IMG/VR virus record: IMGVR_UViG_2671181134_000013
Length of the DNA: 6,152 nt
Source of the DNA: a virus
Taxonomy: Duplodnaviria > Heunggongvirae > Uroviricota > Caudoviricetes
Reading direction: 5' to 3' (one strand)
The notes under the pieces: generated by a model
Database searches by the model: none
Told to the model about the DNA's origin: nothing
The model's input: only the letters and a program-made list of their open reading frames with translations
Made by a program: the position numbers and the translations under genes
Part shown: positions 1-5,670 of the stretch, in pieces
How the letters are laid out: the number at the start of each line of letters is the position of its first letter
Position numbering within the stretch: the first letter of the stretch is position 1

Positions 1-1218
1 ATGAACAAACTGAGCGATACCTTGCTAAGGAAACTTCATGGTAAGCCAGCGGAGAAAAACACGTTTTATAGTGATGGCGGAAACCTGAGCGTGAAATATT
101 TAACATCAGGGAAATTGACCTGGTATTTCACATACAGGGCCGGAACGGGAAGGGAGACACGACCCGAACGCATTAAGCTGGGAAGTTATCCTGATCTGAG
201 CCTGAAAGCAGCCAGGGAAAAAGCCGCACAGTGTCGCACATGGCTGGCTGAGGGGAAAAATCCACGTCATGAGATGAATTACACCGTACAGGAAGCGTTA
301 AAGCCCGTAACGGTTGGCGATGCGCTCACCTACTGGCTTGAGTATTACGTAAAGGAAAACCGCGTGGATTATATCGCCCTGAAAAGGCGACTTAATAATC
401 ACGTAATACAGCAGATTGGTGCTATGCCGCTGGATAAATGCGAGCTACGGCACTGGCTGGCCTGTTTTGACCAGGTGGCAAAGCGAACGCCTGTTACTGC
501 CGGATTCGTGCTACAGGCGTGCAAACAGGCGCTTAAGTTCTGCCGTAGGCGGCGCTATGCAATCAGCAACGTTCTGGACGATCTGAACGTGGCGGACGTT
601 GGGAAAAAACCGGATATAAGCGAACGTGTCTTAAGTAACAAAGAACTTGGCGAATTATTGCAGGCACTGGACAAAAAAATATTCTCCCCTTACTACGTCG
701 CGTTAATCCGCCTCCTGATTGTCTTCGGAGCCAGAACGGTAGAACTGAGGTTATCGGAGATCGGGGAGTGGGATTTTACGGAAATGCTATGGACCGTTCC
801 GAAGGAGCACAGCAAAACGAAGGTCGCAATATTCCGGCCCATACCGGAAGCGATCCTGCCGTTCGTCACGCAGCTGGTGGAGCAGAACAGGCACACGGGC
901 TTATTGCTGGGGGAAGTGAAACAGGAGGCCAGCGTATCGCAGTATGGAAGATTAGCGCACAGGAGGCTTAATCATCCTCACTGGTCACTACATGACATCC
1001 GGCGCACCTTTACAACGATGCTGAACGATTTAGGCGTGGATCCTCACGTCGTGGAGCAGCTTACAGGCCACCAGATGCCAGGAATGCAGCGAGTTTATAA
1101 TCATTCCCGTTATCTGGATGCTAAACGCAATGCGCTGGATATGTGGACGGAGCGGTTAGGGATACTGGCGGGAACACATGAAAACGTAACCACGCTACCA
1201 GTAGCCAGAAGAAAATAA
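1..1218 (+). CDS. int: Tyrosine-type site-specific recombinase (P4 / CP4-57-family integrase), 405 aa
   Basis: N-terminus (LSDTLLRKL..GKP....FYSDGGNLSVKY...GKLTWYFTYR...IKLGSYPDLSLKAAREKA) matches the arm-binding domain pattern of P4-type integrases; C-terminus carries the catalytic box HDIRRTF and the tyrosine-containing RVYNHSRYLDAKRNALDMW. ATG is at window position 1, so the promoter, upstream start alternatives and any att/tRNA site are not visible. Stop TAA at 1216-1218. Confidence 0.9.
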   Translation: MNKLSDTLLRKLHGKPAEKNTFYSDGGNLSVKYLTSGKLTWYFTYRAGTGRETRPERIKLGSYPDLSLKAAREKAAQCRTWLAEGKNPRHEMNYTVQEALKPVTVGDALTYWLEYYVKENRVDYIALKRRLNNHVIQQIGAMPLDKCELRHWLACFDQVAKRTPVTAGFVLQACKQALKFCRRRRYAISNVLDDLNVADVGKKPDISERVLSNKELGELLQALDKKIFSPYYVALIRLLIVFGARTVELRLSEIGEWDFTEMLWTVPKEHSKTKVAIFRPIPEAILPFVTQLVEQNRHTGLLLGEVKQEASVSQYGRLAHRRLNHPHWSLHDIRRTFTTMLNDLGVDPHVVEQLTGHQMPGMQRVYNHSRYLDAKRNALDMWTERLGILAGTHENVTTLPVARRK

Positions 1219-1582: not shown

Positions 1583-1771
1583 GTGTTAAGCACTGATCGG
1601 TTTATACGTGAAAAAGAATGCGAAAAACTAACCGGCCTTAGCCGTACGTGTCGCTACCGCCTGGAAAAGGCCGGACAATTCCCATCACGTCGTAAACTTG
1701 GCGGTCGTTCCGTTGGCTGGTCTTTATCCGAGGTTCTGGCCTGGAAGGATAGCTGCAAGGCAGTTCATTAA
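1583..1771 (+). CDS. alpA: AlpA / Vis-family (Phage_AlpA, MerR-like HTH) transcriptional regulator or excisionase, 62 aa
   Basis: Translation RFIREKECEKLTGLSRTCRYRLEKAGQFPSRRKLGGRSVGWSLSEVLAW fits the AlpA signature (TGLSRst.Yrl...G.FP.p.klg.rsvgW...E...W). GTG start at 1583 preceded by AAGGGGG (1571-1577). Confidence 0.85.
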   Translation: MLSTDRFIREKECEKLTGLSRTCRYRLEKAGQFPSRRKLGGRSVGWSLSEVLAWKDSCKAVH

Positions 1772-1917
1772 TCACGCTGGCGGCACGCAGCCGCCACACA
1801 TCAATCATCTGAACACAGAGCTATAACCATGAAGATTGAATATACGCCAGAACGTAGGCGGGGATTCGTTCGCCCTGGTGAAACTGAAAAACAACAAAAT
1901 TGGGGTTTTTCAGGCAT

Positions 1918-1945
1918 AACAAAAAGCGCCCAGTTACCTGAGCGC
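1918..1945 (-). terminator. Candidate rho-independent terminator for the minus-strand cassette (weaker on the plus strand)
   Basis: Stem 1926-1933 / 1938-1945 (GCGCCCAG / CTGAGCGC) with loop TTAC. On the minus strand the single mismatch becomes a G-U wobble and the stem is followed by UUUUUGUU (plus A-run 1921-1925). On the plus strand it is followed only by CTTTG. Confidence 0.4.
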
Positions 1946-2148
1946 CTTTGTGAACGATTAACCTGCTGCGAAAAAATTGGATCAGTGCAGGGGAATTATA
2001 TCAACTGTGTGAAGAAGCGCCACTATTGCCGGATAACAGGCAAAGAAAAGGCCACCAGTCACGGTGGCCCTGCGACACAAATTTCGCGTTATCCCCAACG
2101 CATGAGCATCGCCAACAATGCCACATTTGCGGCTGGTGGGCAATGCTA

Positions 2149-2322
2149 TCAGTCTGGTTCAGTTCGTTGCCATACCTGCAATGAGCGCTTTTCCCTGTAC
2201 TCTTTAAGGAATTGCTCAAGGGCAAAAGCACATGGCGCGAATCTTTCTGATTCATGCTCTATCTTTCTGCGCCGTCTTTTCCGTGCCGGTGATAATGTTT
2301 TGGTCAATTCTTTATCGGTCAT
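2149..2322 (-). CDS. Hypothetical small basic protein (57 aa from second ATG; 62 aa if ATG at 2337)
   Basis: Minus-strand ORF MTDKELTKTLSPARKRRRRKIEHESERF...; AGGA lies 7 nt upstream of the ATG at 2322. Lies 58 nt downstream of the RHH-like gene on the same strand. No recognisable domain. Confidence 0.25.
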   Translation of the reverse strand: MTDKELTKTLSPARKRRRRKIEHESERFAPCAFALEQFLKEYREKRSLQVWQRTEPD

Positions 2323-2379
2323 TGTGTTGTCCTGCATAGCAATGCGCCGTAATACCTCACACCACGGCGCTGATAGTGA

Positions 2380-2559
2380 TTATTCTGATTCTTTGGCCTT
2401 GCGGCGCTGGCGGCGTTTGATCTCGCCTTCAAGTGCCGAAACGATAAATTGCCCTGTACTTTCGCCATCTTCCTTTAAATTTTCTACAGCATCAGCTATT
2501 GCGTGTGGTACTCGAGCCTCAAGCTTTTTGGATTTTGCATTAACTGCTTTTGTTGCCAT
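2380..2559 (-). CDS. Small ribbon-helix-helix (Arc/CopG/MetJ-like) DNA-binding protein, 59 aa; candidate repressor
   Basis: Internal ATG at 2559 of the 106-aa minus ORF has GAGGAAA 8 nt upstream. Product MATKAVNAKSKKLEARVPHAIADAVENLKEDGESTGQFIVSALEGEIKRRQRRKAKESE aligns by eye with Arc (FNLRWP-REVLDLVRKVAEENGRS-VNSEIYQRVMESFKK): beta-strand LEARVP, helix A, G-x-S turn, helix B. Divergent from the plus-strand operon. Confidence 0.55.
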   Translation of the reverse strand: MATKAVNAKSKKLEARVPHAIADAVENLKEDGESTGQFIVSALEGEIKRRQRRKAKESE

Positions 2560-2580
2560 ATCTGATTTCCTCGTTATTAG

Positions 2581-2662
2581 GTGGCTGACAGTATACACAC
2601 AAGAAAACGGAAAAACACTATTGACGTGGCTGACACCCGTTACTAATATAGTGGCTGACACC
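2581..2662. repeat. Three direct repeats GTGGCTGACA(CC) in the divergent control region; putative operator sites
   Basis: Exact 10-mer at 2581-2590, 2626-2635 and 2651-2660; copies 2 and 3 share the 12-mer GTGGCTGACACC. Copy 1 is 21 bp upstream of the RHH start, copy 2 overlaps the -35/spacer of the plus promoter, copy 3 sits just downstream of the -10. Confidence 0.5.
2621..2649 (+). promoter_or_regulatory. Sigma70-like promoter for the plus-strand operon (P4 PLE-like position)
   Basis: TTGACG (2621-2626), 17-bp spacer, TAATAT (2644-2649). Located about 100 bp upstream of the first operon ORF. Confidence 0.35.
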
Positions 2663-2690
2663 TTTATCAAGGTAATCGATGAAAAGACAA

Positions 2691-2723
2691 AGCCCCGCAA
2701 GTGTCGTTACCACTCGCAGGGCT
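2691..2723. other. 13-bp-arm imperfect inverted repeat (hairpin) in the operon leader
   Basis: AGCCCCGCAAGTG-tcgttac-CACTCGCAGGGCT; 11 of 13 Watson-Crick pairs on the plus-strand RNA. Both mismatches become G-U wobbles on the minus-strand RNA, giving a 13-bp stem. No U-tract follows on either strand. Confidence 0.4.
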
Positions 2724-2753
2724 TCTAACCAACAACGTAAACTAGGAGCCGTT

Positions 2754-2954
2754 ATGGTTGCTGTAAATCATATACCACACCTTGTACACACACAAACGGC
2801 CTTTGTGTGGCGTTTTCTGGCACTGAGTGCCGGAGAATCTCAAATCATCCACGTAACCGCCTGGACGGAACGCGAAGCGCGTAGCCGTTGCCCGTCCGGT
2901 TGTGTTGCTGTATTCGCCGCCCGTATTCGTCAGGAGGTGTGCCATGTGCAATAA
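2754..2954 (+). CDS. Small protein, 66 aa, tentatively Icd-like (P4 host cell-division inhibitor family)
   Basis: ATG at 2754 with AGGAG (2744-2748) 5 nt upstream. Motif FVWRFLALS....TAWTEREARSR....VFAARIR resembles, from memory, the F.W.F.A...ER.AR...FAAR pattern of Icd-like proteins. Alternative start ATG 2679 (91 aa) with a weaker AAGGT. The 3' end overlaps the next ORF by 11 nt. Confidence 0.45.
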   Translation: MVAVNHIPHLVHTQTAFVWRFLALSAGESQIIHVTAWTEREARSRCPSGCVAVFAARIRQEVCHVQ

Positions 2955-3165
2955 AACCACACCGGACGCAGCCGCCGCCGCACTCACTACGCTGATGCAC
3001 GCGCTTATTGATATTGAATGCACGGCAGAGCTTGCGCAGGGAGAAGAACAGAAAGACCGGACACAGTTCGCCCTGGAATGTATCAGATACACCGCCACGC
3101 GGTCGCTGAATGAGGCTAAAAATATTCTTATTGCTGATTGTGAAAATGGGGGGGGGTATGCGTGA
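2944..3165 (+). CDS. Hypothetical protein, 73 aa
   Basis: ATG at 2944 preceded by AGGAGG (2933-2938, 5-nt spacing). Last codons before the stop read through the G9 tract (GGG-GGG-GGG-TAT-GCG-TGA). No recognisable domain. Confidence 0.55.
   Translation: MCNKTTPDAAAAALTTLMHALIDIECTAELAQGEEQKDRTQFALECIRYTATRSLNEAKNILIADCENGGGYA
3148..3156. repeat. G9 homopolymer at the junction of two small ORFs
   Basis: Nine consecutive G at 3148-3156, inside the last codons of ORF 2944-3165 and immediately upstream of ATG 3158 of the next ORF. Confidence 0.9.
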
Positions 3166-3379
3166 TGATCGTTTTAATTCCCTGAAACAGGAATTTTCCG
3201 GCGTTCCTGATGATGCGGCTGATGCGCTTTCGTCAATATCTGAAATTATGCGGGTGGCTTTTTTCTTTCTTTGCACTGATGAGCACAGGGATACAGGGCT
3301 AAATATTCTTGATATTGCCGCTAACTATGCTGATTTCGTGACAGAAGTTGTTTTAAGAAAAACGACGGACGGGGATTAA
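3158..3379 (+). CDS. Hypothetical protein, 73 aa (77 aa if ATG 3146; frame open back to 3110)
   Basis: ATG 3158 directly follows the G-run, which could act as a Shine-Dalgarno. Overlaps the upstream stop (TGA 3163-3165) by 8 nt. No recognisable domain. Confidence 0.5.
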   Translation: MRDDRFNSLKQEFSGVPDDAADALSSISEIMRVAFFFLCTDEHRDTGLNILDIAANYADFVTEVVLRKTTDGD

Positions 3380-3380
3380 T

Positions 3381-3614
3381 ATGCGTGATATTTACCTTGA
3401 AACAATAGACCGCGCATTTCTTGCACTTTCTCACAGTGAAAACATGCTGGAAATATTGCGCATATGGCTTGACACGCTTGGAGATAATGAACGCGACAAA
3501 CAAAAATCAAGAATTGCCACGGCATTAATAACGCTACTTGAGCCTGTAATAATGGAACTGCAAAAAATAGATCTATTGCACGACAGATATAAAGAACAGC
3601 ACACCGGAGAATAA
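3381..3614 (+). CDS. Hypothetical protein, 77 aa
   Basis: ATG 3381 is 1 nt after the upstream stop; GGGGA at 3371-3375. No recognisable domain. Confidence 0.55.
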   Translation: MRDIYLETIDRAFLALSHSENMLEILRIWLDTLGDNERDKQKSRIATALITLLEPVIMELQKIDLLHDRYKEQHTGE

Positions 3615-3619
3615 AAATA

Positions 3620-3919
3620 ATGAAACTTAAATATTCTGGCTTAACTGCCAGTGGCAACACTCACCCTAAATTTACGCGCGGTGATATTTACCGCGACCAG
3701 TACGGCGGCACGGTAATGATTAAGGGCGTGGCGGGACGGTGCGTAACTTACCGCCGTGAAGGTTACGAATATGATTGCGTGATGCCTGTTTATCAGTTCC
3801 GGCGTGATTTTTCTCTGGTACAGACCGCGCCGCATAACGTGCCCACCAGCAACGCCAGGGCACGGGCAAACATCCAGAAGCTGAAAACAATGATTAACGG
3901 ATTCAGGGGTAAAAAATGA
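3620..3919 (+). CDS. Hypothetical protein, 99 aa
   Basis: ATG 3620 with GGAGA at 3606-3610. Its stop overlaps the primase start (ATGA at 3916-3919), indicating translational coupling. No recognisable domain. Confidence 0.6.
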   Translation: MKLKYSGLTASGNTHPKFTRGDIYRDQYGGTVMIKGVAGRCVTYRREGYEYDCVMPVYQFRRDFSLVQTAPHNVPTSNARARANIQKLKTMINGFRGKK

Positions 3920-5670
3920 AACTGGCACCGAACGTAAAACAGCAGTCACGCGGCATAAAACACAAAGAAACAGAAGTCATTATTTTTGCGGGTAGTGATG
4001 CCTGGTCACACGCAAAACAATGGCAGGAACATGACGCGCGTATGGCCGGAGATAATGAGCCTCCTGTGTGGCTTGGGGAGCAGCAGTTATCAGAACTGGA
4101 TAAGCTGCAAATTGTGCCGGAAGGCAGAAAATCCGTGCGCATATTCAGGGCCGGATATCTTGCGCCAGTAATGATAAAGGCGATTGGTCAGAAGCTGGCG
4201 GCGGCAGGCGTACAGGATGCAAATTTTTACCCTGATGGTATGCACGGTCAGAAGGTGGAGAACTGGCGCGAATATCTGGCCAGTGAGCGCCAGAATCTTT
4301 CTGATGGGCTGGTTATTGAGCTTCCTGTAAAGCAAAAGGCGCAACTTTCGCAGATGGCGGACAGTGAGCGCGCTCAACTTCTTGCCGGACGATTTGATGG
4401 CGTTTGCGTGCATCCTGAAAGTGAAATCGTTCACGTATGGCGCGGCGGGGTATGGTGTCCGGTCAGCACAATGGAACTTAGCCGCGAAATGGTGGCGATC
4501 TATTCAGAGCACAGGGCCACTTTCAGCAAGCGCGTAATCAATAACGCCGTGGAAGCGTTAAAAGTTATTGCCGAACCAATGGGCGAGCCGTCCGGCGATT
4601 TGCTGCCGTTCGCCAATGGTGCGCTTGACCTGAAAACGGGGGAATTTTCCCCGCACACGCCGGAGAACTGGATCACCACGCACAACGGCATTGAGTACAC
4701 GCCACCAGCACCAGGGGAGAACATCCGCGATAACGCGCCAAACTTTCATAAATGGCTTGAGCACGCAGCCGGAAAAGACCCGCGCAAGATGATGCGTATA
4801 TGTGCCGCGCTGTACATGATTATAGCGAACCGGTACGACTGGCAGATGTTTATTGAGGCCACCGGAGATGGCGGGAGCGGTAAAAGTACATTCACGCACA
4901 TAGCCAGCCTTCTGGCAGGGAAACAGAACACGGTAAGCGCTGAAATGACGTCGCTTGATGATGCTGGTGGACGTGCGCAGGTTGTCGGGAGTCGTCTTAT
5001 CGTCCTGGCTGACCAGCCGAAATATACAGGCGAAGGAACGGGCATCAAGAAAATCACGGGCGGTGACCCCGTGGAAATTAACCCGAAATACGAAAAGCGT
5101 TTCACGGCTGTAATCAGGGCGGTGGTGCTGGCGACCAACAATAACCCGATGATATTCACCGAACGGGCCGGAGGTGTGGCACGTCGTCGCGTGATTTTCC
5201 GTTTCGACAATATCGTCAGTGAGGCCGAAAAAGACAGGGAGCTACCGGAAAAGATTGCGGCTGAAATCCCTGTCATTATCCGCCGATTGCTGGCGAACTT
5301 TACCGACTCTGAGAAAGCACGGGCTTTACTACTGGAACAGCGTGACGGTGATGAAGCTCTGGCAATAAAGCAACAGACGGATCCGGTTATTGAGTTTTGC
5401 CAGTTCCTGAATTTTCTGGAGGAAGCACGCGGCCTGATGATGGGCGGCGGTGGCGATTCAGTGAAGTACACGACCAGAAACAGCCTTTACCGCGTCTATC
5501 TGGCGTTTATGGCGTACGCAGGCAGGAGCAAACCGCTAAACGTAAATGACTTTGGCAAGGCTATGAAGCCAGCCGCGAAAGTTTACGGACATGAATATAT
5601 TACGCGGAAAGTTAAGGGAGTAACGCAGACTAACGCAATAACAACAGACGAGTGCGACGCGTTTTTATAA
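3916..5670 (+). CDS. Replication initiation protein: P4 alpha-like primase-helicase (D5_N / primase-C-terminal region plus SF3-type NTPase), 584 aa
   Basis: Walker A GDGGSGKST (about 4864-4890), Walker B-like hydrophobic strand LIVLADQ (about 4996-5016), and upstream PFANGALDLKTGEF...HTPENWITT typical of the D5_N/P4-primase C-terminal family. GGGG Shine-Dalgarno 6 nt before the ATG. The N-terminal 300 aa has no CxxC zinc motif that I can see. Confidence 0.88.
   Translation: MKLAPNVKQQSRGIKHKETEVIIFAGSDAWSHAKQWQEHDARMAGDNEPPVWLGEQQLSELDKLQIVPEGRKSVRIFRAGYLAPVMIKAIGQKLAAAGVQDANFYPDGMHGQKVENWREYLASERQNLSDGLVIELPVKQKAQLSQMADSERAQLLAGRFDGVCVHPESEIVHVWRGGVWCPVSTMELSREMVAIYSEHRATFSKRVINNAVEALKVIAEPMGEPSGDLLPFANGALDLKTGEFSPHTPENWITTHNGIEYTPPAPGENIRDNAPNFHKWLEHAAGKDPRKMMRICAALYMIIANRYDWQMFIEATGDGGSGKSTFTHIASLLAGKQNTVSAEMTSLDDAGGRAQVVGSRLIVLADQPKYTGEGTGIKKITGGDPVEINPKYEKRFTAVIRAVVLATNNNPMIFTERAGGVARRRVIFRFDNIVSEAEKDRELPEKIAAEIPVIIRRLLANFTDSEKARALLLEQRDGDEALAIKQQTDPVIEFCQFLNFLEEARGLMMGGGGDSVKYTTRNSLYRVYLAFMAYAGRSKPLNVNDFGKAMKPAAKVYGHEYITRKVKGVTQTNAITTDECDAFL

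Follow-up and report, generated by a model that had tools for sequence, protein, structure and literature searches.

Candidate ribbon-helix-helix repressor, three putative operators and a predicted SymR-like antisense RNA in the control region of an EcCICFT073-like island of Escherichia coli

The window analyzed here is a stretch of 6,152 nucleotides which, judged from the order and lengths of its genes, is a phage-inducible chromosomal island (PICI) of E. coli resembling EcCICFT073. The order int, alpA and, further on, primase matches that of EcCICFT073, gene lengths are mostly equal, and an alignment of the two control regions gives 79% identity; by this sequence comparison, the presence of the same control module in the prototype EcCICFT073 is established, its counterpart lying at 1380650 to 1381060 of the CFT073 record NC_004431. 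EcCICFT073 itself is induced and packaged by a helper phage, and AlpA is the known activator of its induction (PMC6092414). Islands encoding an identical ribbon-helix-helix (RHH) protein continue into genes for SSB, PerC, capsid and small terminase. The relevant genes of the window, with the signals next to them, are the following.

1583 to 1771, plus strand: alpA (Pfam PF05930, E value of 5e-17), convergent with the RHH gene
2071 to 2048, minus strand: predicted terminator beyond the 57-aa ORF
2149 to 2322, minus strand: basic 57-aa ORF downstream of the RHH gene (phrog_21027), identical to an annotated EcCICFT073 coding sequence
2380 to 2559, minus strand: RHH gene, encoding the proposed repressor, a YlcI/YnfO family protein of 59 aa
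2744 to 2748, plus strand: Shine-Dalgarno sequence AGGAG of the icd-like gene
2754 to 2954, plus strand: icd-like gene (66-aa ORF, NCBIfam NF033153), first gene of the presumed regulated operon
2944 to 5670, plus strand: remainder of the presumed operon, from overlapping small ORFs onward, in the same order as in EcCICFT073
3620 to 3919, plus strand: DUF4222 ORF
3916 to 5670, plus strand: D5/P4-type primase, last ORF of the overlapping plus-strand run

An earlier, sequence-only reading of the window had described overlapping plus-strand ORFs up to a D5/P4-type primase, and this account of the neighboring genes holds. The Icd-like protein scores 64.6 bits against NF033153 (cutoff, 25), and in a tblastn search of 50,697 phage records it matched a single entry, an "induced prophage" of 16.5 kb. 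A terminator-like hairpin on the plus strand within the icd-like gene (2789 to 2809) was considered as an attenuator and rejected for lack of conservation in EcCICFT073 and because the T run codes for a conserved RFL motif. On the minus strand, the 57-aa ORF and the RHH gene probably share one transcript. A role for this ORF as a toxin partner of the RHH protein was rejected because it is missing from all 77 loci of our comparison set, which comprises non-E. coli Enterobacterales loci of many genera gathered via homologues of the RHH protein. Convergence of alpA and the RHH gene is seen in at least 46 of these 77 loci.

The 59-aa RHH protein matches the NCBIfam model NF041551 (YlcI/YnfO) over residues 9 to 50 with 60.6 bits (cutoff, 30), and the identical protein is annotated as a YlcI/YnfO family member in RefSeq. 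An RHH fold of the Arc/MetJ/CopG type is supported by a monomer model with an N-terminal β-strand followed by two helices. Pfam contained no family matching at an E value of ≤0.01, a PDB profile search gave no sequence match at an E value of ≤10, and tblastn against the 50,697 phage records gave no match to this protein.

The region between the RHH and icd-like genes contains three short repeats and the elements of two divergent promoters.

2581 to 2591: candidate operator 1, GTGGCTGACAG, covering the start and -10 of the leftward promoter, that of the RHH gene, where autoregulation is proposed to act
2590 to 2595, minus strand: predicted -10 (TATACT) of the RHH gene promoter, at a position conserved in relatives
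2621 to 2626, plus strand: -35 (TTGACG) of the rightward promoter, a sigma70-like match at a conserved offset
2626 to 2636: candidate operator 2, GTGGCTGACAC, abutting the -35 and occupying the upstream half of the spacer
2644 to 2649, plus strand: -10 (TAATAT) of the rightward promoter, a sigma70-like match with 17-bp spacing
2651 to 2661: candidate operator 3, GTGGCTGACAC, over the predicted rightward transcription start

Three exact plus-strand copies of GTGGCTGACA had been noted, and they are indeed found at 2581 to 2590, 2626 to 2635, and 2651 to 2660, against 0.02 expected by chance; none of 200 shuffles reached three, and the window holds no further exact copy. The real repeat unit is 11 bp long, with the form GTG-GCTGA-CA(C/G), and copies 2 and 3 are embedded in a longer repeat of 21 nt. 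The distance of 21 bp claimed between copy 1 and the RHH start codon (2557 to 2559) is correct, as is the claimed overlap of copy 2 with the -35, the last base of which is the first base of the copy. Copy 3, previously assigned to +2 to +13, begins 2 bp past the -10, which places it at about -5 to +6 relative to the predicted start. TTGACG-17 bp-TAATAT is the sole sigma70-like match between 2300 and 3000, and no -35 is recognizable for the leftward RHH promoter in the window.

The proposal that the repeats are operators over a sigma70-type promoter gains support from the relatives, in which both the promoter and the layout are conserved. In 71 of the 77 loci, site 1 lies over the RHH -10 and start, site 2 abuts the rightward -35, site 3 is located at or just past the rightward -10, and a TTGA(C/A/G)N -35 occurs at an identical offset. 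Operator 1 keeps a constant offset to the RHH start codon and a distance of 45 bp to operator 2 in the large majority of these 71 loci, its spacing being off by 1 to 2 bp in a few. When promoter hexamers were counted over the 69 distinct control regions, a TAnnnT -10 at 17- to 18-bp spacing was present in 66 and a leftward TATACT -10 at the same position as in the window in 52, with TATAAT-like hexamers in most of the others. In the relatives, operator 3 adjoins the -10 or lies some 11 bp downstream of that position, and its orientation, direct or inverted, depends on the class. A GTG-N5-CAC frame is kept throughout, and the 5-bp core varies in all three sites together.

This variation follows the β-strand of the RHH protein. 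Sites within one locus differ by 0.6 to 0.7 nt; between loci, sites differ by 0.46 nt per 10 when the β hexapeptide is the same and by 4.27 when it is different. Overall, 25 β hexapeptides correspond to 27 site variants, and in a subset of 62 loci with 23 hexapeptides the relationship is nearly one-to-one [H(site|β) = 0.22 bit; H(β|site) = 0.25 bit]. Mutual information with the site class is highest at RHH residues 14, 12, and 13 (z = 17.5, 15.6, and 12.6, respectively), and Arg16 is invariant across loci; taken together, the peaks and the invariant residue indirectly indicate that alternate β-strand residues may read bases. The partial Mantel correlation of site and β-strand, given the rest of the protein, is 0.40, a value reached in 0 of 2,000 permutations; the site correlates with the remainder of the RHH protein too (partial r = 0.28), and shared ancestry thus partly confounds the covariation. 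Specific pairings can be read from single loci: GTGGCTGACA is confined to the control regions of loci with a (K/R)KLEAR RHH protein, among them six 16-kb E. coli island loci, and the EcCICFT073 strand QALKAR goes with GTGGGCCACA, the same site that accompanies QSLKSR in Dryocola (locus L019). The same operators co-occur with differing first genes, replicases and excisionase-type neighbors. The operator core thus tracks RHH residues 12 and 14 almost one-to-one and not AlpA, the Icd-like gene or the replicase, which makes the RHH protein very probably the autoregulated repressor of the icd-like-to-primase operon. Conditional entropies were uninformative for the Icd N terminus and the hairpin described below because their classes are nearly as numerous as the loci. 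The suggestion that the divergently encoded RHH protein is the ligand of the repeats is supported by covariation of core and β-strand over about 25 putative specificity classes.

Downstream of operator 3, the minus strand carries a further element, overlooked in the sequence-only reading.

2676 to 2759 (about), minus strand: SymR-like cis-antisense small RNA (sRNA; covariance model R1), covering the icd-like 5' untranslated region, ribosome binding site and first two codons
2680 to 2725, minus strand: intrinsic terminator of the antisense RNA (stem, 2725 to 2689; U tract, 2688 to 2680)
2767 to 2772, minus strand: predicted -10 (TATGAT) of the antisense promoter, inside icd-like codons 5 to 7
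2795 to 2790, minus strand: possible -35 (TTGTGT) of the antisense promoter

By its structure and strand, the hairpin at 2689 to 2725 is the terminator of a predicted minus-strand antisense sRNA. It has 15 pairs, 8 of them G-C, and the tail GTCTTTTCAT. Model R1, built from the relatives with the window excluded, scores 39.7 bits on the window (minus strand, 2758 to 2676; E value of about 1e-8), finds EcCICFT073 at 58.7 bits, and finds the annotated symR of E. coli K-12 at 28.4 bits (E value of about 9e-6). The sRNA strand folds at -35.4 kcal/mol (z = -6.1) and the opposite strand at -20.6 kcal/mol (z = -1.8). In the RNA family, 18 of 26 pairs show compensatory changes, and 96.6% of cells are paired, compared with 37 to 48% in slid controls. 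Most relatives have TAGACT, TATGCT or TATGAT at the position of the antisense -10.

In the reverse direction, the Rfam SymR model (RF01809) matches four relatives (L010, L032, L052, and L024) with 30.5 to 40.4 bits, all under the Rfam gathering score of 61 bits. Rfam searches with the whole window (E value of ≤1) and with 2600 to 2900 (E value of ≤10) returned nothing, be it C4, isrK, SymR or int-alpA RNA, and the link to SymR derives from the Rfam matches of the relatives and our own model R1. The likeness to the symE/SymR locus of E. coli K-12, described by Kawano et al. in 2007 (PMC1891008), is nevertheless reciprocal and extends to structure and geometry. Both have an antisense RNA of about 77 to 80 nt with two hairpins, supported by covariation in our family, and a U tail on the strand antisense to the target; in both, the RNA starts a few nucleotides inside the target ORF, from a promoter placed there by sequence in our case, and covers the start codon and Shine-Dalgarno sequence. 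The -10 lies at nucleotides 14 to 19 of the ORF in the icd-like gene as well as in symE, where it was located by mapping the mutated sequence from PMC1891008 onto the K-12 sequence. Furthermore, a DNA-binding repressor holds off the target promoter, as we propose for the window. The two differ in the target, which is not symE but an Icd-like gene heading a satellite replication operon, SymE being an AbrB-fold protein, and in the repressor, which is LexA for symE and an island-encoded RHH candidate in the window.

We consider it very likely that 2560 to 2800 is the control region of the island, in which the RHH protein with its three operators would be complemented by a SymR-like antisense RNA as a second lock. 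The comparative data cover the sites, their conservation, their covariation with the protein, and the structure and strand of the RNA; from these, we infer binding, repression, start sites, sRNA expression in the window's element, polarity and the opening of the lock. The 59-aa protein would bind three 11-bp operators of the form GTG-GCTGA-CAC; its β-strand side chains 12 and 14 would recognize the 5 variable base pairs of the core, and Arg16, which is invariant, the constant GTG/CAC frame. With operators 2 and 3 bracketing spacer and start site in the rightward promoter (TTGACG-17-TAATAT), bound RHH protein would exclude RNA polymerase from the icd-like-to-primase operon. Binding to operator 1, on the RHH gene's own -10 (TATACT) and start, would result in negative autoregulation. 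The RNA of about 80 nt would start from a promoter within the icd-like gene, end at the hairpin and U tract (2725 to 2680), and pair with the ribosome binding site and start codon, so that translation of the icd-like gene is blocked; through the overlap of the ORFs, it would probably also lower the expression of the genes behind. The lock could be opened by AlpA-driven transcription that converges on and reads through the RHH gene or, alternatively, by a helper-phage antirepressor. In EcCICFT073, overexpressed AlpA alone triggers replication with the RHH gene present (PMC6092414), and hence repression by the RHH protein can presumably be bypassed or overridden.

This last observation can also be counted for a different role, in which the RHH protein binds the sites but chiefly for toxin control or addiction, the cassette silencing a harmful Icd-like protein rather than switching induction. 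In sequence, structure and geometry alike, the antisense RNA is similar to SymR, the symE antitoxin RNA, and the first gene belongs to a family named for the cell division inhibitor Icd of P1. However, the primase needed for island replication sits in the operon behind the promoter, and there are loci in which these operators stand before a Phage_ASH first gene in place of the Icd-like gene. We regard this role as unlikely, though by no means negligible, and it is compatible with a role of the RHH protein as repressor of the replication operon.

It is far less probable that the hairpin at 2689 to 2725 has its function on the plus strand, in the leader of the icd-like mRNA, as an attenuator, a C4/CI-like RNA or a protein-binding element. 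The hairpin is located in the 5' untranslated region, the immunity RNAs of P1 and P4 reside in leaders of this kind, and C4 or isrK matches are found in some Gram-negative PICIs (PMC10111431). Against this stand the absence of Rfam C4 or isrK matches in the window, the lack of a U tract following the hairpin on the plus strand, and the many G-U pairs of the minus-strand stem that become C-A or A-C mismatches on the plus strand. The alifold energy is -8.6 on the plus strand versus -33.5 on the sRNA strand, and model R1 gives 10 bits versus 39.7.

Binding of the repeats by AlpA or another island protein instead of the RHH protein seems to us highly improbable. AlpA, which the sequence-only reading had also put forward for binding, is an activator that binds DNA and is required for PICI induction, and its gene is about 800 bp away. 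However, Xenorhabdus loci share the identical GTGGCTGACA and KKLEAR with the window, yet their AlpA and that of the window share only about 45% identity, and E. coli islands with identical RHH protein and sites have a 68-aa neighbor with no match to the AlpA Pfam family. Similarly, an identical Icd-like N terminus occurs with three different site classes, and a one-to-one mapping to the site is obtained for the RHH β-strand only. That the direct repeats are replication origin iterons bound by the primase or an initiator can scarcely be maintained: they do lie in a satellite close to replication genes, and P4 and PICIs use repeated initiator sites, but the replicases that accompany identical sites are of three unrelated kinds (D5 primase, DUF927, and AAA_25 RepA), the sites are locked to promoter hexamers and not to an AT-rich unwinding region, and one site is inverted in several classes.

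The proposed repression by the RHH protein and antisense RNA can be compared with other known systems. The immI region of phage P22 combines the RHH repressors Mnt and Arc, Pant and the antisense RNA sar, with Mnt acting as a tetramer on a single symmetric operator. No sequence relationship to P22 is known; the window has three separate asymmetric 11-bp sites, and the regulated genes are icd-like to primase instead of the antirepressor. Omega of pSM19035 and CopG-type RHH regulators belong to a different sequence family, and Omega takes contiguous 7-bp heptads, whereas the 11-bp sites of the window lie 25 and 45 bp apart and are tied to promoter elements. In position, between int and the replication operon and divergent from the latter, the RHH gene resembles those of Stl and Rpr in Gram-positive PICIs (SaPIs), and it would have the same role if our reading of it as a repressor is right. 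Stl, however, is a larger helix-turn-helix protein that is freed by binding a helper-phage protein, and the established trigger of Gram-negative PICIs is AlpA. The suggestion that the region is a counterpart of the PICI master repressor or of the P4 immunity region thus stands for its position between int/alpA and the replication operon, and the likeness to P4 is positional only. In place of a P4-type immunity RNA, for which no C4/CI-type match was found by Rfam, the window has a predicted cis-antisense RNA resembling SymR. RNA control of an icd-type gene at the head of an operon is also seen in P1 immI (c4 RNA-icd-ant), and the CI RNA of P4 is likewise promoter proximal in an operon leading to primase, but both C4 and CI arise by processing of the sense leader and have repeated target sites.

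With the repeats as probable RHH sites and the antisense RNA as a second lock, the RHH protein becomes a candidate for the repressor missing in Gram-negative satellites. No RHH repressor or antisense RNA of PICIs was described in the literature searched, which was mostly without subscription journals and in which absence is not proof; YlcI/YnfO and Icd-like genes are listed merely as accessory or prophage-associated genes (PMC13612085). Tentatively, and as a possibility to which we give less than even weight, YlcI/YnfO RHH proteins might be the master repressor that has been missing for Gram-negative PICIs and cf-PICIs, and might also determine their immunity. More than 20 operator specificities might then constitute immunity groups, induction might consist in removal of the RHH protein, by AlpA-driven convergent transcription or a helper antirepressor, and a SymR-family RNA might provide a second, posttranscriptional lock; chromosomal symE/symR might share ancestry with this cassette, LexA replacing the RHH protein. 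If so, distinct operator specificities would let several islands cohabit one cell without cross talk. A function is hereby proposed for an uncharacterized and very common protein family, and the SymR family, so far tied to one chromosomal toxin locus, would come to include RNAs in the early operon of a large satellite group. In addition, the covariation yields a putative residue-to-base recognition table for RHH proteins; if the table is true, changing K11/K12/E14 to Q/A/K, as in the EcCICFT073-type QALKAR, would shift the preference from GTGGCTGACAC to GTGGGCCACAC.

The module is widespread. The identical 59-aa protein is indexed in >5,000 blocks of an assembly collection, and the control region DNA from 2300 to 3000, with the RHH gene, operators and icd-like gene, has at least a partial match in 1,538 of 5,426 complete E. 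coli genomes, 153 of which match over ≥80% of its length.

Judged from its genes, the window is an EcCICFT073-like satellite, because gene order and gene lengths match those of this prototype Gram-negative phage-inducible chromosomal island (PICI). Order is the same and lengths are nearly equal, with int slightly different; EcCICFT073 carries an annotated YlcI/YnfO gene and an Icd-like gene, and islands with the identical ribbon-helix-helix (RHH) protein run on into SSB, PerC, capsid, head-decoration and small-terminase genes. Among 5,426 complete E. coli genomes, 1,538 contain at least a partial match to the 2300-3000 region, and in 153 the match extends over 80% or more of the region. The window's features are:

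1-1218, plus strand, ORF for a tyrosine integrase
1583-1771, plus strand, ORF for AlpA
2380-2559, minus strand, ORF for the 59-aa RHH protein
2754-2954, plus strand, Icd-like protein (NCBIfam NF033153)
between the icd-like gene and the primase gene, plus strand, overlapping small ORFs, then DUF4222
3916-5670, plus strand, ORF for a D5/P4-type primase

Ahead of the RHH gene, GTGGCTGACA occurs in three exact copies on the plus strand, at 2581, 2626 and 2651, and no further exact copy is present in the window's 6,152 bases. By chance, 0.02 copies would be expected on average, and none of 200 dinucleotide-preserving shuffles reached three; two-mismatch copies elsewhere in the window are at chance level (7 found versus 4.8 expected). 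A repeat finder reported a longer, 21-nt repeat enclosing copies 2 and 3, and once comparative data are added, the repeat unit is read as 11 bp, GTG-GCTGA-CA(C/G). A scan of both strands of 2300-3000 gave a single sigma70-like match, TTGACG (2621-2626), a 17-bp spacer and TAATAT (2644-2649). Copy 2 shares one base with this -35, copy 1 lies 21 bp from the RHH start codon, and copy 3 begins two bases past the -10, thus spanning about -5 to +6. On these counts, shuffles and spacings, the sequence-only reading of three direct repeats, one overlapping the -35 and one 21 bp from the RHH start, is confirmed with a single correction, as it had placed the third repeat at +2 to +13. A short stem-loop (2663-2675, ACCUU-UAUC-AAGGU) starts two bases past operator 3, close to where the 5' end of the operon transcript is predicted; classes with operator 3 abutting the -10 have counterparts of the form CCTTGA...TCAAGG in which bases have changed, and other classes lack them.

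To place these sites in a wider context, 77 loci were gathered with an alignment of RHH homologs from one-genome-per-species contigs, the genera including Xenorhabdus, Pectobacterium, Yersinia, Serratia, Proteus, Dryocola, Kluyvera and Klebsiella. A common architecture was found upstream of the RHH gene in 71 of them: a first site about 24 nt from the start codon, followed immediately by GTATAC; a second site 45 bp beyond, directly abutting a TTGA(C/A/G)N hexamer; and a third site 20-36 bp past the second. The GTG...CAC frame is constant, while the five central bases vary between loci and change jointly in all three sites. Each of the 69 distinct regions kept has TTGAnn as its rightward -35, and 66 have a TAnnnT hexamer at a spacing of 17-18 bp, which bears out the proposal that the repeats overlap a sigma70-like promoter. 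Site 3 starts within 2 bp of the -10 in 41 regions and about 11 bp later in 24, and several classes have it in inverted orientation. Read on the opposite strand, the GTATAC that is conserved beside site 1 gives TATACT in 52 of the 69 regions, a sequence well suited as a -10; site 1 would therefore cover the predicted -10 and start of the promoter that serves the RHH gene itself, for which the window holds no convincing -35. The geometry of the sites argues for repression of the rightward operon combined with negative autoregulation. Two Xenorhabdus loci (L016 and L075, both at about 2453-2480) have lost everything between operators 1 and 3, leaving one hybrid site and no rightward promoter, and a further locus (L006, about 2408-2480) lacks operator 3; these losses look like deletions by recombination between direct repeats.

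The divergent RHH protein had been named as the likely ligand, and co-variation supports this. Sites within one locus differ by 0.6-0.7 nt; between loci, the difference per 10 nt is 0.46 when the RHH beta-strand hexapeptide is the same and 4.27 when it is different. In total, 25 hexapeptides and 27 site variants were found, and in a 62-locus subset the mapping is nearly one-to-one (conditional entropies of 0.22 and 0.25 bit).

Examples of RHH beta-strand hexapeptides and the operators paired with them.
KKLEAR, GTGGCTGACA
KRFDVR, GTGTCCGACA
QTLAAR, GTGTTCAACA
QQLNAR, GTGCGATTCA
QMTTVR, GTGTATTTCA
LQVSVR, GTGGTGTTCA
QSVTAR, GTGTAAGACA

Mutual information between protein columns and site class is highest at residues 14, 12 and 13, equaling the column entropy at 12 and 14, and Arg16 is invariant among the homologs compared; alternate beta-strand residues that point into the major groove would be expected to give such a pattern. 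In a partial Mantel test of site against beta-strand with the rest of the protein removed, r was 0.40, a value reached in 0 of 2000 permutations. A smaller correlation with the site (0.28) persists for the remaining parts of the protein, and shared ancestry therefore contributes. The window and EcCICFT073 align well along the whole control region except in the cores of all three sites; EcCICFT073 pairs QALKAR with GTGGGCCACAC at sites 2 and 3, and the only other locus with GTGGGCCACAC, from Dryocola (L019), has QSLKSR. These data point to the RHH protein as the reader of the three putative operators.

Other candidates for the specificity partner were rejected, because each varies independently of the sites. 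GTGGCTGACA is confined to control regions of loci with a (K/R)KLEAR protein, and none was found outside the control region in six 16-kb E. coli loci covering islands. The replicase is ruled out, as the identical RHH protein and sites occur with a D5 primase, a DUF927 primase or an AAA_25 RepA helicase. The same holds for the Icd-like protein, one identical N-terminus of which was found with three site classes; the identical RHH protein and sites also stand before a 186-aa Phage_ASH gene instead. AlpA, which had been suggested as a second binder of the repeats, is likewise not upheld: Xenorhabdus loci with the same sites have an AlpA only about 45% identical to that of the window, and the identical RHH protein and sites are accompanied either by AlpA or by a 68-aa protein without an AlpA match.

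A hairpin at 2689-2725 appears from its sequence to be part of a second control element, overlooked in the sequence-only reading. It was scored as a minus-strand intrinsic terminator with 15 pairs and the tail GTCTTTTCAT, and its plus strand has C-A mismatches and no U tract. While an Rfam search of the window gave no match, relatives have full-length, sub-threshold SymR matches on the RHH strand (30-40 bits versus a gathering threshold of 61; local E = 2e-6), extending from the icd-like start codon to the hairpin. Sixty distinct sequences from other loci align as two hairpins of 26 pairs, many of them G-U and 18 with compensatory changes; 96.6% of cells are paired, versus 37-48% with partners slid, the covariation score is 0.38 versus 0.17 in shuffles, and the alignment folds at -33.5 kcal/mol on the RNA strand versus only -8.6 for the reverse complement. 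A covariance model, R1, built from these sequences with the window excluded, scored 39.7 bits (E about 1e-8) at window 2758-2676 on the minus strand, 10 bits on the plus strand, 58.7 bits in EcCICFT073 and 28.4 bits (E about 9e-6) at the annotated symR of K-12. For the window RNA, the folding energy is -35.4 kcal/mol (z = -6.1), and for the opposite strand -20.6 (z = -1.8). In the work of Kawano et al. (PMC1891008), mutation of CATTCT in symE eliminated SymR; read against the K-12 sequence, this places the symR -10 (TAGAAT) at nt 14-19 of the symE ORF. At nt 14-19 of the window's icd-like ORF, the minus strand reads TATGAT (2772-2767), a candidate -10 with a possible -35, TTGTGT, 17 bp upstream and a predicted RNA 5' end of AACCAU at 2759; relatives have TAGACT, TATGCT or TATGAT at this place across four different coding contexts. 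Because SymR matches, covariation, strand-specific folding, R1 scores and -10 position agree, the region is predicted to encode a SymR-like cis-antisense RNA, fully complementary to the icd-like Shine-Dalgarno sequence (2744-2748) and start codon. The K-12 symE leader (L079 5836-5990; …GCTAATCACAATCACTATTCCTGGAGAATAGCAGTTATGAC) resembles the satellite leaders (…TCTAACCACAATGTTATTGGAGCTAACACTATGGC), which suggests that the satellite cassette and the symE/symR control region of the chromosome have a common ancestor. Rfam placed int-alpA RNA (RF02996) above threshold in two related islands (L052 347-413 and L029 4961-5029, both minus strand) and did not detect it in the window.

It is probable that in the resting island, the RHH protein on operators 2 and 3 blocks the rightward promoter and, through operator 1, limits its own synthesis, and that the antisense RNA keeps any escaping transcript untranslated at the first cistron. 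Since the ORFs overlap (2944 versus 2954, and so on), this block may also lower downstream expression. In P1, C4 acting on icd reduces expression of the downstream ant gene, and by analogy the first-cistron block may act similarly here. Regarding induction, a helper phage induces AlpA, which activates its own promoter, and over-expressed AlpA suffices for EcCICFT073 excision and primase-dependent replication (PMC6092414). The alpA and RHH genes converge in the window, as they do in at least 46 of the 77 loci, and the gap between them ranges from about 220 nt in Xenorhabdus to about 600 nt in the window. This arrangement would allow transcriptional interference or read-through, and alpA read-through might therefore interfere with RHH synthesis and enter the operon. 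Alternatively, a helper-encoded anti-repressor could open the lock.

Both parts of this module belong to known types, one being an RHH repressor and the other a cis-antisense RNA. The closest system is symE/SymR: reciprocal searches place its RNA in the same family, and the geometry is shared, but the repressor is LexA and the target gene is a different one. P22 immI, in which a divergent RHH repressor is combined with an antisense RNA covering the ribosome-binding site, is a close functional analogue without sequence relationship, and the RHH proteins Omega and CopG can use short direct or inverted repeats. The suggested likeness to a PICI master repressor or the P4 immunity region stands in part: the RHH gene occupies the position of Stl/Rpr of Gram-positive PICIs, although the protein is of another kind, and Rfam found neither P1 nor P4 immunity RNAs in the window. 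Our literature search, of incomplete coverage, found no description of the module, and an earlier one is possible; a 2026 survey gives YlcI/YnfO simply as a prophage-associated protein. The CFT073 genes of the module bear late-added locus tags and were therefore probably unannotated in 2018. Apparently new are the assignment of these parts to the YlcI/YnfO family, the recognition table, the SymR link and the finding that the model PICI carries the module.

Several features of the islands are of note. Just downstream of the RHH gene, a 57-aa basic ORF (2149-2322, minus strand) is identical to an annotated EcCICFT073 CDS, matches phrog_21027 (function unknown) and does not occur in the 77 non-E. 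coli loci; behind it, at 2048-2071, lies a good minus-strand terminator. Between alpA and the RHH operon, window 1829-2276 (plus strand) corresponds to an annotated truncated hypothetical gene in a 99.7% identical island (L001 8638-9085) and is possibly what decay has left of the 'Bro zone', a variable segment reported from Gram-negative PICIs. In the near-identical island of E. coli ESDR8, ISEc20 and an IS21-family element interrupt the regulated operon (L001 9880-11076 and 12284-14591). Database names for the putative Icd-like protein (2754-2954) conflict, PHROGs labeling two families that match it (phrog_1743 and phrog_6196) 'transcriptional repressor' and NCBIfam 'cell division inhibitor Icd-like'. 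Finally, E. coli CP028381 (L080 8001-9125) carries tandem 59-aa RHH genes (8001-8180 and 8685-8864) with a small ORF behind each one but a single set of three GTGGCTGACA sites, and a match among the complete E. coli genomes (H2) also shows YlcI/YnfO twice.
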